Assembly: GCA_013816265.1 (NCBI GenBank)
Contig: JACDES010000001.1
Coordinates: 25,636-89,635 of the forward strand
Length of the DNA stretch: 64,000 nucleotides
Direction: 5' to 3'
Origin: Parachlamydiaceae bacterium
GTDB taxonomy: Bacteria; Chlamydiota; Chlamydiia; Chlamydiales; Parachlamydiaceae
Within the stretch, counting starts at the first letter, position 1; every line of letters starts with the position of its first letter. The notes below the pieces were generated by a model, which was not told where the DNA came from, ran no database searches, and saw only the letters and a list, made by a program, of their open reading frames with translations. Positions 1-40,592 of this stretch are shown here, piece by piece. A program made the position numbers and the translations under genes.

Positions 1-560
1 ATAAGAACATGTTCGTTTTCAGATAACTCTCCTTTTTCAAAGGCATAATAGACAGTACCAAATGCAACAGGTAAACTACATCCTTGCTCGAATGTAATAT
101 TTTTGGGTTTTGAAATTACATTATTATGTGGGACATTAACGAAGTTGGCGTGACCGCCCATTTTCTCCCCGGCTAAAGCGATAACCTCGTCACCTTCACG
201 AAAACCAGTTACATTTTTTCCTATTTTTGATATCACACCCGCCACTTCAAATCCTGGAACAAAAGGATATAGTGGCATTGTTGGATATAATCCATTCACA
301 CTCATGATATCAGGAAAATTGATTGCACTTGCTTTCACATTAATCTGAATTTCATTTTGATCGGGTTCAGAAATTTGCCACGAAAGTAGTTCAAGTTCAT
401 CCATAACATGTACGGATGATAAAACTAACCCATAATTTTTTTCTAAATTCTTATCCAATATTGATTTTGACTGATTAGAAATTGCATTGATCAATTTCAA
501 TGCTTCATCAGGCGAGATCTTCTTTGCATGAAGATCGCTTAAAATGTCTTGTATACCCAT
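1..560 (-). CDS. MDR-superfamily enoyl reductase (ER) domain protein, N-terminal part only (gene runs off the left edge); probably the next PKS subunit
   Basis: Not in the ORF track because it is truncated by the window. Manual minus-strand translation from ATG at 560-558 gives MGIQDILSDLHAKKISPDEALKLINAI...EIQINVKASAINFPDIMSVNGLYPTMPLYPFVPGFEVAGVISKIGKNVTGFREGDEVIALAGEKMGGHANFVNVPHNNVISKPKNITFEQGCSLPVAFGTVYYAF. This is the classic N-terminal MDR/PKS-ER pattern (INFxD, P..PG.E.AG.V..G..V..F..GD.V). The first ~25 aa resemble the N-terminal docking helices of the PKS ORFs at 27524 and 14383. Confidence 0.6.
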   Translation of the reverse strand, partial: MGIQDILSDLHAKKISPDEALKLINAISNQSKSILDKNLEKNYGLVLSSVHVMDELELLSWQISEPDQNEIQINVKASAINFPDIMSVNGLYPTMPLYPFVPGFEVAGVISKIGKNVTGFREGDEVIALAGEKMGGHANFVNVPHNNVISKPKNITFEQGCSLPVAFGTVYYAFEKGELSENEHVL

Positions 561-575
561 ATTATGGTCCACAAC

Positions 576-1325
576 TTATTTTCCAAAAAGGGATAAAATC
601 TTTTCTTTTACTTCAGGTTGATGAAATGTTTTTTCATGCATCAAGAGTTCTTGCTTAATGATAGACTGCAAGTCTCTTCTCAAAGGGGCAACTAAATGAT
701 CTTTAAGAGTGATCAAAGATGTCCTAGGTTTTTCACTTAAAGAACGAGCTATTTTCATCGCATGTTCAACGACTTCATTTCTTGGCAATACAGGGAAAGG
801 GATACCTCTTTGTTGTAATTCTTCGCCCAAAAAATTTTCTGCGGTCATTAAAAGTTCTTGTGTAAGGCTTAAGCCTAATTTTACAGGCAATATCAATGTT
901 GCACCCATGCCAGGTGTAAAGCCATATTTCATAAAATTTGTTGTATATATACTTTTTCTACTGAGAATGACGAAATCCGCAAAAAGCCCCATCACGAAAC
1001 CTCCACCAATTCCATGGCCTTGCATAGCAGAAATAACAGGTATCGGGCAATCTAATGCTAAACTATATAAATTCCCGTCTGTAAAAGTTGCTTCCTTTTG
1101 ATGGATCTCTAACAAAGCTTCTTGGGTACCTCCAGAAGCAAAATAAGTATCAAACCCAGTTAAAATGACGACTTTTAAATTTTGATTATTTCGAATTTTC
1201 TCAAAGGATGAAATTAATCCTTTCACCAGTTCTTTTGAAAAAGTATTTTTGTGCACTCGGTCTTGCATCGTTAACAAAGCAATGCCTGGCTCAATTTCTT
1301 TTAGTTCTACTACAGAATTTTCCAT
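576..1325 (-). CDS. Enoyl-CoA hydratase family protein, ECH2-type (beta-branch decarboxylase, PksI/CurF-ECH2-like)
   Basis: 249-aa ORF with crotonase motifs 'YFASGGTQEAL', 'MQGHGIGGGFVMGLFADF' and 'NFMKYGFTPGMGAT'. It lies directly after ECH1 and HMGS in the same orientation. It is a paralog of the ORF at 38539-39279. Confidence 0.8.
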   Translation of the reverse strand: MENSVVELKEIEPGIALLTMQDRVHKNTFSKELVKGLISSFEKIRNNQNLKVVILTGFDTYFASGGTQEALLEIHQKEATFTDGNLYSLALDCPIPVISAMQGHGIGGGFVMGLFADFVILSRKSIYTTNFMKYGFTPGMGATLILPVKLGLSLTQELLMTAENFLGEELQQRGIPFPVLPRNEVVEHAMKIARSLSEKPRTSLITLKDHLVAPLRRDLQSIIKQELLMHEKTFHQPEVKEKILSLFGK

Positions 1326-1348
1326 ATATCAACAATCTTTTTTCTAAT

Positions 1349-38514: not shown

Positions 38515-38538
38515 ACATGTATCAGTGGTATATGTTTT

Positions 38539-39279
38539 TTACTGTCCAAATAACGTTTCTATACGATGTTTTACTTCCTGTTGACTAAAGGACAAACGAT
38601 GCATTTCTAATTCTTGTTCAATTATTTTTGGGATCTCTTCTCTAATTTGGCGCGTTAAATGTTTCTTTAGAATGATAAGTGAATCCCGAGGCTTTCTTGC
38701 TATCTCTTCAGCACAGGTAAGTGCCTTTGCGATGACCTCTTTTTTCTTTAATATTTCTAAGGGTACTCCTAGATTTTTCAATACACCACCTTGATAATTT
38801 TTTGCTGTAAAGAGCATCTCATGTCCTATGGATTCGCCAAATTTTTTGGGGATTGTATATGTTGCTCCCATTCCTGGTGTAAACCCATACTTCATGAAAT
38901 TTGTACTGTAAATACTTTCTTCAGCCAATAAAATTATATCTGCAAAGCATCCAAGCGCCAACCCACCTCCAATAGCATGTCCTTGCATAGCTGCAATAGT
39001 AGGCACTGGACAATCCAACAGTAATCGATAAAAATTCAAATCTACAAAAGTGATTTTTCCATCGAATATTTTTAATAACTCCTCTTGAGTGCCTCCACAA
39101 CAAAAATAATTATCATATCCATGTATCACAACAACTTTGATTCTTGAGTCTGTTTCAATAGCTTTAAATGTTTCAATTAGACCTTTAATTAAGGAATGGG
39201 AAAATGTATTTCGCGCTTCTTTATCAGCTAACTGAACAATAGCAACCCCTTCAGTAATTTCCAACGTTACAGCATTCAT
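38539..39279 (-). CDS. Enoyl-CoA hydratase family protein, second ECH2-type paralog
   Basis: 246-aa ORF with 'YFCCGGTQEEL', 'MQGHAIGGGLALGCFADI' and 'NFMKYGFTPGMGAT'. It is clearly paralogous to 576-1325. Its start overlaps the stop of the upstream KS gene by 4 nt (39276-39279). Confidence 0.8.
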   Translation of the reverse strand: MNAVTLEITEGVAIVQLADKEARNTFSHSLIKGLIETFKAIETDSRIKVVVIHGYDNYFCCGGTQEELLKIFDGKITFVDLNFYRLLLDCPVPTIAAMQGHAIGGGLALGCFADIILLAEESIYSTNFMKYGFTPGMGATYTIPKKFGESIGHEMLFTAKNYQGGVLKNLGVPLEILKKKEVIAKALTCAEEIARKPRDSLIILKKHLTRQIREEIPKIIEQELEMHRLSFSQQEVKHRIETLFGQ

Positions 39280-40550
39280 TTACTACCCTTTATTTTAGAG
39301 AATAATACACTGGAATTTATCCCACCGAACCCAAAAGAGTTACTTATAGCATGATTTATTGTTAACGATTGACTTTGGTTACATACAAAATTACAATCTT
39401 GACAGATAGGTGTTTGTAAATTCAATGAAGGATGAACAAAAGATTGTTTCATTTGTAGGATTGTTGCGATAGCCTCCACAATTCCACCAGACCATAGACA
39501 ATGTCCAGTAATGCTTTTAGTGGAATTTAAAGCAACTTTTTTTGCACAAGGTCCAAAAACCTGTTTAATCGCTTCTATCTCAGTTTCATCTCCTATAACT
39601 GAACTGGAACCATGCGTATTGATATATTGAATTTGATTGGGTAAAATACCTCCATTATGCATTGCTGAGTTCATAACAAACATTTCCCCCTCAAGATTTG
39701 GAGAAGATCCTCGATATCCATCTAATTTCATTGAAACGCCTGAAATTGCAATGGTATCTTCATTCGAATGGTTTTTTCTGCCATGTGACGCTTCTAAAGT
39801 TATACACCCGCTAGCTTGGCCCCAAATGAACCCATTGTGATCTTTATCGAAAGGTCTGCAAGCTTGCGAAGGGATCTTTTTATAACTATCTCCTCCCAAA
39901 GCACCTATTTGGTGAAACCCTTGCAATTCCAATGGAGATAAATCGGCTAATGCTCCTACAACCAAACATATATCAAGAATACCATGTTTTATCATCCTGT
40001 AGGCATTGATCAAGGCTAAATTTCCACTCGCTGAAGCTCCGCCAATTGTAAATCCTTCTCCATGAATCTCAAAAATTTCACTCAATGTCCCCACATGATC
40101 CGTATCCATGAATCGAATTGCATAATTTGGATTTAGATACGTTGGTTCTCTTTTGAAGGCTTCATTTGAAACATATTGATATCTTTGTGAAATATTCTGT
40201 CCTGCTACAACGATTCCAATTCTCTGTTTATTAATGTTCCTCTCATGAATTTTACTTTCTCTCCATGCTCCTAACGCAGCTATGATGGCAGTTTGTATTG
40301 TCAGTGGAGCTCTATTTCCAGCTTTTTTAGCATGTATTATTAATTCTCTAGGTAAATCGGAATAATCTTCAAGAGATGACTCAAACGAGAAGTCACTAAG
40401 CCCTGCTACGATTACGGGGAATGACAATTCTGGAAAATCTTGGCTACAAATGAAATGACTTTTTCCATTAAATAAAGAATCGTTAAAAGATGATAGAGAA
40501 TGTCCTGCTGAACTAACAATACCCATTCCTGAAACTGATACAGAGACCAT
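39276..40550 (-). CDS. Free-standing decarboxylating ketosynthase (KS-S/KS0 of the beta-branching cassette, PksF/CurC-like)
   Basis: The track ORF runs to GTG 40592. ATG at 40550 gives a typical KS N-terminus, 'MVSVSVSGMGIVSSAG'. The active-site Cys is replaced by Ser: 'FTIGGASASGNLA' aligns to the FabF 'IATACTSG' pattern. Both His motifs are retained ('NTHGSSSVIGD', 'KSITGHCLWSGG'). Confidence 0.8.
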   Translation of the reverse strand: MVSVSVSGMGIVSSAGHSLSSFNDSLFNGKSHFICSQDFPELSFPVIVAGLSDFSFESSLEDYSDLPRELIIHAKKAGNRAPLTIQTAIIAALGAWRESKIHERNINKQRIGIVVAGQNISQRYQYVSNEAFKREPTYLNPNYAIRFMDTDHVGTLSEIFEIHGEGFTIGGASASGNLALINAYRMIKHGILDICLVVGALADLSPLELQGFHQIGALGGDSYKKIPSQACRPFDKDHNGFIWGQASGCITLEASHGRKNHSNEDTIAISGVSMKLDGYRGSSPNLEGEMFVMNSAMHNGGILPNQIQYINTHGSSSVIGDETEIEAIKQVFGPCAKKVALNSTKSITGHCLWSGGIVEAIATILQMKQSFVHPSLNLQTPICQDCNFVCNQSQSLTINHAISNSFGFGGINSSVLFSKIKGSK

Positions 40551-40592
40551 AAATTGTAACGCCTTCTGCACGAATTGTATACCACAGCCCAC

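Follow-up and report, generated by a model that had tools for sequence, protein, structure and literature searches.

A 64,000-nucleotide stretch of contig JACDES010000001.1 (the window), belonging to the assembly GCA_013816265.1 of a Parachlamydiaceae bacterium, was found to encode a large modular polyketide synthase (PKS) whose megasynthases lack integrated acyltransferases (trans-AT type). Very probably it represents the core of an orphan trans-AT assembly line of chlamydial source, accompanied by a complete beta-branching cassette that includes a homologue of HMG-CoA synthase (HMGS).

Assembly line and beta-branching cassette

Domains were assigned by Pfam scans (E<=1e-3), and all of them were mapped by internal BLAST. 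The public contig JAITZQ011376509.1 is 87,213 bp long and has the window as its final 64 kb; on it, 9.4 kb beyond the left end of the window was read as well, which gave 73 kb in total and the first 888 residues of PKS6 (Table 1). A previous reading of the window, made from its letters only (the sequence-only reading), had described four co-directional giant open reading frames (ORFs) of 3658, 2607, 1182 and 3340 amino acids, all of which lie on the minus strand. Its counts of nine ketosynthase (KS), five ketoreductase (KR) and 12 in-line acyl carrier protein (ACP) domains, with one dehydratase (DH), one C-methyltransferase (MT), one GNAT and one flavin monooxygenase (FMO), were all matched, and the module order it deduced emerged again from the domain map. 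The KS domains comprise three in PKS1, two plus one split in PKS2/PKS3, one in PKS3 and two in PKS4, while PKS1 to PKS4 carry five, two, one and four in-line ACPs, respectively. The line was expected to continue to the left with an enoylreductase (ER) in the next protein; PKS5 indeed starts at window position 560, with the ER at its N-terminus, and is followed by PKS6. Altogether, twelve KS-containing modules are spread across six proteins. The window contains about 46 kb of the cluster, including most of an assembly line of roughly 70 kb, and a further 14 kb or more lies to the left.

The trans-AT architecture that had been proposed is borne out, since no acyltransferase (AT; PF00698), ER or thioesterase (TE) family was detected in the four proteins (E<=1e-3), and PF00698 is absent from PKS1-PKS5 and the first 888 residues of PKS6 at the same threshold. 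KS linkers typical of trans-AT systems (PF22336 and PF22621) follow KS domains in every protein. Non-canonical modules occur as well, namely a KS/DH module split over PKS3 and PKS4, non-elongating KS domains (KS0) and two KS-ACP-ACP modules. The two KS0s, the split KS6 and KS11, are so designated because the first His is missing. Cys is kept in all integrated KS domains (that of KS6 being read in frame across a stop), Lys/Ser/Tyr in all KRs, and HxxxGxxxxP and DxxxH/Q in both DH1 and DH2.

The HMGS cassette is complete, consisting of a Cys-to-Ser KS, a donor ACP, the HMGS, one ECH1 and two ECH2. The HMGS has its catalytic Cys (Cys114) in the motif QACYAGT, and its TIGR01835 score is under the equivalog cut-off, as expected of PKS HMGS homologues. 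The third ECH was read as the PksH-type dehydratase (ECH1) because its model, NF005498, differs from that of the two PksI-like ECHs. The free-standing 83-aa ACP had been overlooked in the sequence-only reading. Two beta-branching modules had been predicted, and the motif GLDSIIGVEW, with its Trp flag, was found in all four tandem ACPs of both KS-ACP-ACP modules and in none of the nine other in-line ACPs; in acceptor ACPs for beta-branching a conserved Trp sits six positions beyond the Ser, a rule reportedly described by Haines et al. in 2013 and cited in PMC9600693.

The GNAT start of the line likewise holds, by homology to the CurA GNAT, with E 4.5e-51 and 7.8e-52 in two comparisons with PDB 2REE, and by conservation of the residues aligned to CurA Thr355 (VTRC; chain position 140) and His389 (RFHQ; chain position 174), a Thr and a His whose catalytic roles in CurA GNAT decarboxylation were reportedly worked out by Gu et al. 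in 2007. The adapter (AR) before the GNAT has a partial match to PF23525 (residues 5-113) and a match to AprA (6B39), and the loader ACP occupies PKS1 residues 396-490.

The sequence-only reading had delimited the block as 1-40592. Its megasynthase content stands and its right border does not: because two BAHD-like transferases and a cytochrome P450 beyond it are likely tailoring genes, the cluster probably ends near 45752. T1, T2 and the intact P450 are probable tailoring enzymes, T1 having in addition a weak PDB match to plant hydroxycinnamoyl transferase.

Table 1. Features of the PKS cluster, with positions counted from the first nucleotide of the window
Feature	Position	Strand	Description and evidence
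PKS5	1-560 (first 186 codons)	-	2438 aa: ER-KS-DH-KR-ACP-KS0; extends left of the window; Pfam, KS motifs
PKS6	left of window		2321 aa: enoyl-isomerase (EI)-like DH, ACP, KS and further; PDB 4U3V PksR, E 1.2e-31
ECH2b	576-1325	-	second PksI-type decarboxylase; NF005496, 382 bits
ECH1	1349-2119	-	NF005498, 386 bits
HMGS homologue, PksG type	2110-3363	-	PF01154 and PF08540; TIGR01835, 237 bits
Orphan 217-aa ORF	3444-4097	-	inside HMGS cassette; no family match
Donor ACP, free-standing, 83 aa	4112-4363	-	called gene; PF00550
PKS4	4415-14437	-	3340 aa: DH-KR-MT-ACP, KS-KR-ACP, KS-ACP-ACP (second beta-branch); Pfam, BLAST
Degenerate cytochrome P450	14565-15812	+	between PKS3 and PKS4; PF00067 partial, two stretches
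PKS3	16080-19628	-	1182 aa: C-terminal KS0 part (first His to Gln)-ACP, KS forming first half of split module
In-frame TAG in KS0 (KS6)	19701-19703	-	parts PKS2 from PKS3; frame translation ...NRISNYFG-stop-KGPSIAVDTACSSS...
PKS2	19701-27524	-	2607 aa: KS-KR-ACP, KS-FMO-ACP, N-terminal 157 residues of KS0; Pfam, BLAST map
Class B flavin monooxygenase (Ox) domain	20505-22082	-	ACP directly after; PF00743, E 1.5e-57
PKS1	27538-38514	-	3658 aa: AR(MT-like)-GNAT-ACP, KS-KR-ACP, KS-KR-ACP, KS-ACP-ACP (beta-branch); Pfam, BLAST map, KS motifs intact
GNAT loading domain, CurA type	37327-38055	-	PKS1 residues about 154-396; PDB 2REE, E 7.8e-52
ECH2a	38539-39279	-	PksI/CurF-ECH2-type decarboxylase; NF005496, 337 bits; PDB 4Q1K PksI, E 1.4e-78; CurF 2Q2X, E 5e-62
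Decarboxylating KS, free-standing, PksF type	39276-40592	-	NF005490, 480 bits, above cut-off; Cys to Ser (GGASASG vs TACSSS)
BAHD-like acyltransferase T1	40966-42438	+	PF02458, 40.6 bits, above cut-off; HxxxD intact (NHAFFDQ); N-terminal membrane anchor
Cytochrome P450, intact	42521-43870	+	PF00067, E 1.5e-59, full length; FGGGIHKCFG and ExxR
BAHD-like acyltransferase T2	43878-45752	-	T1 paralogue; PF02458, 39.4 bits; NHALLDQ; N-terminal membrane anchor

Source genome and neighbouring genes

In the portion of the supplementary table consulted (Dharamshi et al. 2022, Data S10A), GCA_013816265.1 is MGR_bin366, a metagenome-assembled genome (MAG) of 3.29 Mb with 35.6% GC in 192 contigs, obtained from the mineral soil of a polar desert. 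The antiSMASH table there credits it with two transAT-PKS regions, and it is the sole genome with a transAT-PKS among the approximately 75 chlamydial genomes in the rows covered. MGR stands for the Mackay Glacier region (Antarctic), sampled under BioProject PRJNA630822. The cluster proteins carry the locus tags H0W88_00065 to 00195, lie on a contig of 90,347 bp and are named 'MAG: ... [Parachlamydiaceae bacterium]' in their NCBI records. We infer that H0W88 corresponds to MGR_bin366 and that the PKS belongs to a chlamydial (Parachlamydiaceae) genome from Antarctic polar-desert soil.

Weighing against this assignment is the fact that the chlamydial membership of the contig is based on the depositors' binning together with composition and paralogue evidence. 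If the contig were mis-binned, the PKS might come from another low-GC host-associated bacterium, for instance one of the Legionellales or Bacteroidota, and in favour of this, no tRNA, rRNA or other Rfam family and no universal marker gene were found in the 64 kb of the window, and the flanking genes have no informative Pfam matches except DUF4116. Such an origin is nevertheless improbable. Independently of the binning, GC content at third codon positions comes to 25.5% for the PKS genes, against 24.0% for those flanking them and 22.9% for a different contig of the MAG, and relative synonymous codon usage of the PKS genes correlates at 0.95-0.96 with that of the flank and of the other contig, compared with 0.72-0.84 for a Pelosinus PKS. 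The MAG GC content of 35.6% agrees with that of the window, and the MAG was graded 100% complete with zero redundancy in an independent phylogenomic study. Furthermore, the relatives of an 841-aa flanking protein are confined to the same MAG, where they lie on three other contigs. Since codon usage matches and this neighbouring family is restricted to the MAG, the cluster appears to be native or long resident rather than freshly acquired. Use of the 841-aa protein as an independent taxonomic marker was dropped, given that only paralogues from the same MAG were found and that the other contigs carry the same paralogue arrays.

The presence of 'host-interaction-type' genes beside a PKS, which had seemed unusual, is explained by the chlamydial source genome: the neighbours include DUF4116-repeat proteins, coiled-coil proteins and one protein with a sub-threshold F-box-like match. 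The 841-aa protein (50526-53051) and a 761-aa protein (54006-56291) are paralogues, and the database has just five further relatives of theirs, all from this MAG. On contig JAITZQ014377040.1 at least eight genes of the family stand in an array, each encoding 650-910 aa and lacking a Pfam match. The family is a lineage-specific expansion, and its members are possibly effectors. Two DUF4116-repeat proteins (56591-58102 and 58911-60947) contain eight repeats each, and 1.6 kb downstream (62476-62536) lies a 61-nt copy, 75% identical, of the second gene's 3' end, which looks like the remnant of a third gene.

The F-box-like match (E 0.083, below threshold) lies in a 338-aa ORF (46281-47297), within which a 42-nt tandem duplication (46506-46589, 95% identical) repeats a 14-residue peptide. 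A 479-aa ORF (47477-48916) has Cys and His motifs (QNCGYHALKNAF ... GHWYTII) resembling those of a papain-fold deubiquitinase; its identification as a putative deubiquitinase was left unsupported by Pfam and PDB, where it has no match. Finally, a 384-aa protein (62570-63724) shows a weak match to zeta-toxin/P-loop kinases (PF06414, E 2e-8), and no antitoxin-like gene was identified adjoining it.

Predicted chemistry of the polyketide chain

The domain order suggests how the chain could be built. The GNAT would decarboxylate malonyl-CoA and load acetyl, the predicted start unit. Modules 1 and 2 would then introduce two beta-hydroxyls, module 3 would receive a beta-branch and module 4 would provide a further beta-hydroxyl. 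Module 5 (KS-Ox-ACP, where Ox is the FMO domain) is expected to leave a beta-keto thioester into which Ox would insert oxygen, the resulting in-chain ester being either kept or later cleaved, and module 6, a KS0-ACP, would hand the chain onward. An alpha-methyl enoyl unit is predicted from module 7 (KS followed, on the next protein, by DH-KR-MT-ACP) and a beta-hydroxyl from module 8. Module 9 would get the second beta-branch, for which reduction by the ER at the start of PKS5 is predicted, and module 10 (KS-DH-KR-ACP) would yield an enoyl unit whose double bond could be moved to the beta,gamma position by the KS0/EI-ACP module. The two ECH2 paralogues might give the two beta-branches differing fates. 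The intact P450 would hydroxylate the product, and T1 and T2 would O-acylate it.

The in-line flavin monooxygenase had been recognised from the sequence, and both the PF00743 match and a match to PDB 8ODW agree with this; its FAD, NADPH and FxGxxxHxxxY motifs are intact, with GAGPSG, FQGEIIHSGQY and GNGVSG all present. By far the closest solved relative is the Ox-ACP didomain 8ODW, whose PDB entry is called 'Polyketide synthase modules-related protein' and with which the alignment (E 3e-184, 617 bits) is collinear through the ACP. This is presumably the oxime-forming Ox-ACP of LbmA from the lobatamide PKS, which uses a glycyl thioester as substrate. Pfam detected no adenylation, condensation (C) or peptidyl carrier domain of a nonribosomal peptide synthetase (NRPS), no aminotransferase and no O-methyltransferase (O-MT) in any protein read, and therefore the Ox module is not an oxime module of the LbmA type; an LbmA-type oxime bimodule was rejected in spite of the strong Ox-ACP homology, as there is neither a glycine-loading NRPS nor an O-MT. 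An alpha-hydroxylation bimodule of the MupA/OocM type was rejected also. Although a KS0 lies downstream here too, MupA, OocM and CalD, the alpha-hydroxylases of KS0 bimodules, are class C luciferase-like enzymes (PMC10952193), whereas the present oxygenase belongs to class B (PF00743).

Since module 5 has no KR, Ox should meet a beta-keto thioester. Baeyer-Villiger oxygen insertion on such thioesters is carried out by OocK and LbmC-Ox (PMC7586987), and the integrated monooxygenase (MOX) of the mandelalide PKS has been proposed to act on the same type of substrate (PMC5698493); class B oxygenases performing Baeyer-Villiger oxidation, integrated or in trans, are known in trans-AT PKSs (PMC7586987, PMC5698493, PMC6174933). 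On-line oxygen insertion is favoured on account of this shared substrate type, and by analogy we lean, by a little, towards a Baeyer-Villiger insertion that would place an ester in the chain. Against it stands that 8ODW is the nearest structure, so that the assignment is based on module context and not on phylogeny. The FMO could instead catalyse alpha-hydroxylation, epoxidation or N-/heteroatom oxygenation and leave an all-carbon backbone, which is possible and appreciably less probable. Such an outcome would suit the relationship to 8ODW, the epoxidising Ox clade known for spliceostatin (PMC7586987) and the KS0-ACP placed after the Ox module as in alpha-hydroxylation bimodules (PMC9600693, PMC10952193), but it fits poorly with the class B type of the enzyme, with the lack of an NRPS or aminotransferase to provide an amine, and with the KR-less module.

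At the left end of the line, the N-terminal DH-like domain of PKS6 retains its His but not the Pro, and Asn replaces the catalytic Asp (HxxxGxxxxI, NSPFL). The domain was at first read from these motifs as a pyran synthase (PS), and this was revised to enoyl-isomerase-like after a PDB search, in which it reached 113 bits with PksR (4U3V), compared with at most 44 bits for all other double-hotdog entries, none of them identifiable as a pyran synthase. The 4U3V structure is presumably that of the bacillaene enoyl-isomerase. In addition, the context KS-DH-KR-ACP-KS0/X-ACP corresponds to the layout of a double-bond-shift bimodule, and one MAG each of Pelosinus and Acidobacteria has a trans-AT PKS in which the block KS-DH-KR-ACP-KS0/EI-like-ACP-KS recurs in collinear order (39-48% identity). 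Its conservation across unrelated phyla suggests that the KS0/EI bimodule has been exchanged or retained as a unit. From these sequence comparisons, an enoyl-isomerase of a double-bond-shift bimodule is favoured, with the caveat that the choice between the two enzyme types is based on one PDB comparison. As a pyran synthase, the domain would close a 4-methyl-tetrahydropyran with the 7-hydroxyl from module 8 and there would be no double-bond shift. The retained His and the Asp-to-Asn change fit enoyl-isomerases and pyran synthases alike (PMC7327777), the module context suits either, and a hydroxyl stands at the correct distance, but the preference for PksR renders this alternative unlikely.

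Integrity, relatives and significance of the cluster

The KS0 that had been described as interrupted is indeed broken, and the nature of the break could be corrected: PKS2 and PKS3 are one frame split by a single in-frame TAG. The Cys of KS6 lies between this TAG and the TTG restart at 19628, and is in neither ORF. Leu occupies the TAG position in 10 of the 12 other KS domains, so a single base change from TTG would explain the stop. The 1182-aa product is carried by three contigs read (two are listed in the cluster table), which indicates that the TAG is not peculiar to one assembly, with the reservation that the same reads may underlie all of them. In the antisense P450 that lies between PKS3 and PKS4, the haem Cys is gone (IGGGLYLGAE vs FGGGIHKCFG of the second P450), and relative to the second P450 there are internal deletions, with about 100 residues lost. 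The orphan 217-aa ORF within the HMGS cassette matched nothing in Pfam, NCBIfam or PDB, and a search of 1.84 billion representative proteins returned itself and one match at E 7.5e-4, with no family; its AlphaFold2 single-sequence model has a pLDDT of 32.7. The ORF may be spurious, or it may represent an inserted gene or a novel accessory protein.

Several of these features detract from the picture of a complete and working assembly line. The TAG in KS6 and the P450 without haem Cys mean that the pathway may be inactive or decaying. KS5, located before the FMO, may not elongate because of its odd HSVGS motif, Cys and both His being present. As to completeness, the window (1-64000) contains no trans-AT gene or release domain, as the sequence-only reading stated, and none occurs in the 73 kb read, that is, the window plus 9.4 kb to its left. 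Ten loci (H0W88_00005-00050) are situated left of PKS6 in a stretch of about 9-12 kb, and of at most 12.5 kb, as judged by locus-tag arithmetic, leaving room for trans-AT and release genes. That the whole cluster is a decaying relic, its line no longer productive in this population, is rather doubtful. The truncated PKS2 with its KS Cys outside both ORFs, the degenerate P450 and the orphan ORF speak for it, but the motifs checked in the other KS, KR, DH, MT, ACP, HMGS and ECH domains are intact over about 16,000 codons, which is unexpected after long neutral decay, and frameshifts are absent; the TAG might have arisen recently, be polymorphic in the population or reflect a consensus error, and a KS0 may be bypassable. 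Given that everything else checked is intact, any decay would be recent or partial.

Part of the line bears traces of its own growth. PKS1 residues 1541-3655 are 62% identical to PKS4 residues 1175-3333 over 2,176 residues. The corresponding block of about 6.4 kb (27538-33894 and 4415-10915, spaced by about 22,995 nt) covers ACP-KS-KR-ACP-KS-ACP-ACP, and at the DNA level is 72-79% identical in patches. KS3 and KS9 share 83% identity, whereas outside relatives share about 40%. As these blocks are far closer to each other than to outside relatives, part of the line arose by internal multi-module duplication.

Homologues were sought in a database of 5.8 billion proteins with two sampled segments, PKS3 and the PKS6 N-terminus, whose best relatives were 40% and 50% identical, respectively; the searches returned no match longer than about 2,060 aa, nor PKS6 itself, and very long proteins may be missed. 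Among 185,579 species-representative genomes no close locus was found (best 48%), this collection having given no locus from the source MAG either. In keeping with the earlier failure to recognise any characterised counterpart, the line is thus, by sequence identity, an orphan within the databases searched. Every module type has precedent; the combination and the sequences are unmatched.

The pederin, onnamide and psymberin lines are similar in their GNAT-ACP loader, beta-branching and flavin oxygenases, and in having symbionts of eukaryotes as producers. They possess NRPS modules, O-MTs, PS domains and ECH domains paired in line, and the oxygenase PedG acts in trans (PMC7586987). None of these NRPS modules, ECH pairs, O-MTs or PS domains was seen here. 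Curacin biosynthesis shares the AR-GNAT-ACP tridomain of CurA with conserved catalytic Thr/His, an HMGS cassette, an ECH2 similar to that of CurF, and an ER acting directly after the beta-branch, but it is a cis-AT PKS/NRPS with a halogenase, a cyclopropane, and in-line ECH2 and ER. The bacillaene system (pksX) of Bacillus subtilis is of trans-AT type with PksF/G/H/I-type cassette proteins, and among solved structures its PksR double-hotdog comes closest to the N-terminal domain of PKS6. It differs in having NRPS modules, in lacking a GNAT loader and an oxygenase module, and in module order and product class, with identities of about 40-45%.

In the lobatamide (lbm) cluster of Gynuella sunshinyii an Ox-containing module likewise adjoins a KS0, but there an NRPS glycine loader precedes LbmA-Ox, which forms an oxime, and the LbmC-Ox module includes an MT (PMC7586987); in the present line the KS ahead of Ox has Cys and both His, the chain is amine-free and the remaining order is unrelated. 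By host lineage and chemistry, mandelalide and lasonolide come nearest. The mandelalide (mnd) cluster of 'Ca. Didemnitutus mandela' (Verrucomicrobia) is also a trans-AT PKS of an uncultured host-associated member of the Planctomycetes-Verrucomicrobia-Chlamydiae (PVC) group, with an FMO domain integrated in its first megasynthase and proposed to be Baeyer-Villiger-active, an HMGS cassette with a Trp-flagged ACP, and a trans or N-terminal ER (PMC5698493). Compared by description, mnd has no GNAT mentioned, only one beta-branch and another module order, and it includes pyran-synthase modules, a glycosyltransferase, a kinase and a TE, in which the present cluster differs (PMC5698493). Lasonolide (las), from the PVC symbiont 'Ca. 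Thermopylae lasonolidus', was suspected because of this host and because the 1182-aa product had turned up on three contigs; it shares two beta-branches, Baeyer-Villiger chemistry, KS0 and a P450, and was rejected on its published architecture, in which the MOX enzymes are free-standing, ECH pairs and PS domains occur and a C domain stands at the end, the ECH pairs being in-line (PMC9600693). The las cluster occurs in three copies with a GC content unlike that of its host (PMC9600693), whereas the composition of the present cluster matches its host.

That the cluster is a copy of a characterised pathway of the lasonolide, mandelalide, bryostatin or pederin family is consequently extremely improbable. 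Common module types (beta-branching, oxygenase), a symbiont host and the GNAT loader held in common with the pederin and curacin types could suggest it, but lasonolide and mandelalide differ as described in their in-line ECH pairs, free-standing MOX, PS, glycosyltransferase and terminal C/TE (PMC9600693, PMC5698493), the NRPS module of the pederin family is missing, and the best identity in the database of 5.8 billion sequences is 40-50%. An orphan line in a chlamydial genome remains the preferred reading, and its host phylum is the main point of interest.

Potent defensive metabolites of symbioses, pederin, bryostatin, mandelalide and lasonolide among them, typically come from trans-AT PKSs. 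Drug-like chemistry of this kind is not known to have been reported from the Chlamydiota. The texts of chlamydial genome surveys list only NRPS-like, type III PKS and ribosomally synthesised and post-translationally modified peptide clusters (PMC9666466, PMC13229535), and the transAT-PKS call for GCA_013816265.1 appears without comment in a supplementary table (Dharamshi et al. 2022), the cluster being discussed neither in that paper nor in the one on the Mackay Glacier region. Tentatively, Chlamydiota could here have its first modular polyketide assembly line: a functional cluster of about 70-100 kb, native to an obligate intracellular member of the Parachlamydiaceae from Antarctic desert soil and taking up 2-3% of its 3.3-Mb genome. 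It would make an acylated, doubly beta-branched polyketide ester, with Ox, a close relative of an oxime-forming oxygenase placed in an amine-free chain, performing an on-line oxidation so far unassigned to its clade. The product might benefit the eukaryotic host as pederin and bryostatin benefit theirs. If the cluster is native and active, an obligate intracellular chlamydia would be spending a few percent of its genome on complex polyketide chemistry, and a mutualistic or defensive side of environmental chlamydiae would be suggested. It would also offer a new, phylogenetically remote source of trans-AT modules, and a clean example of assembly-line growth through a duplicated multi-module block of 2,100 residues.

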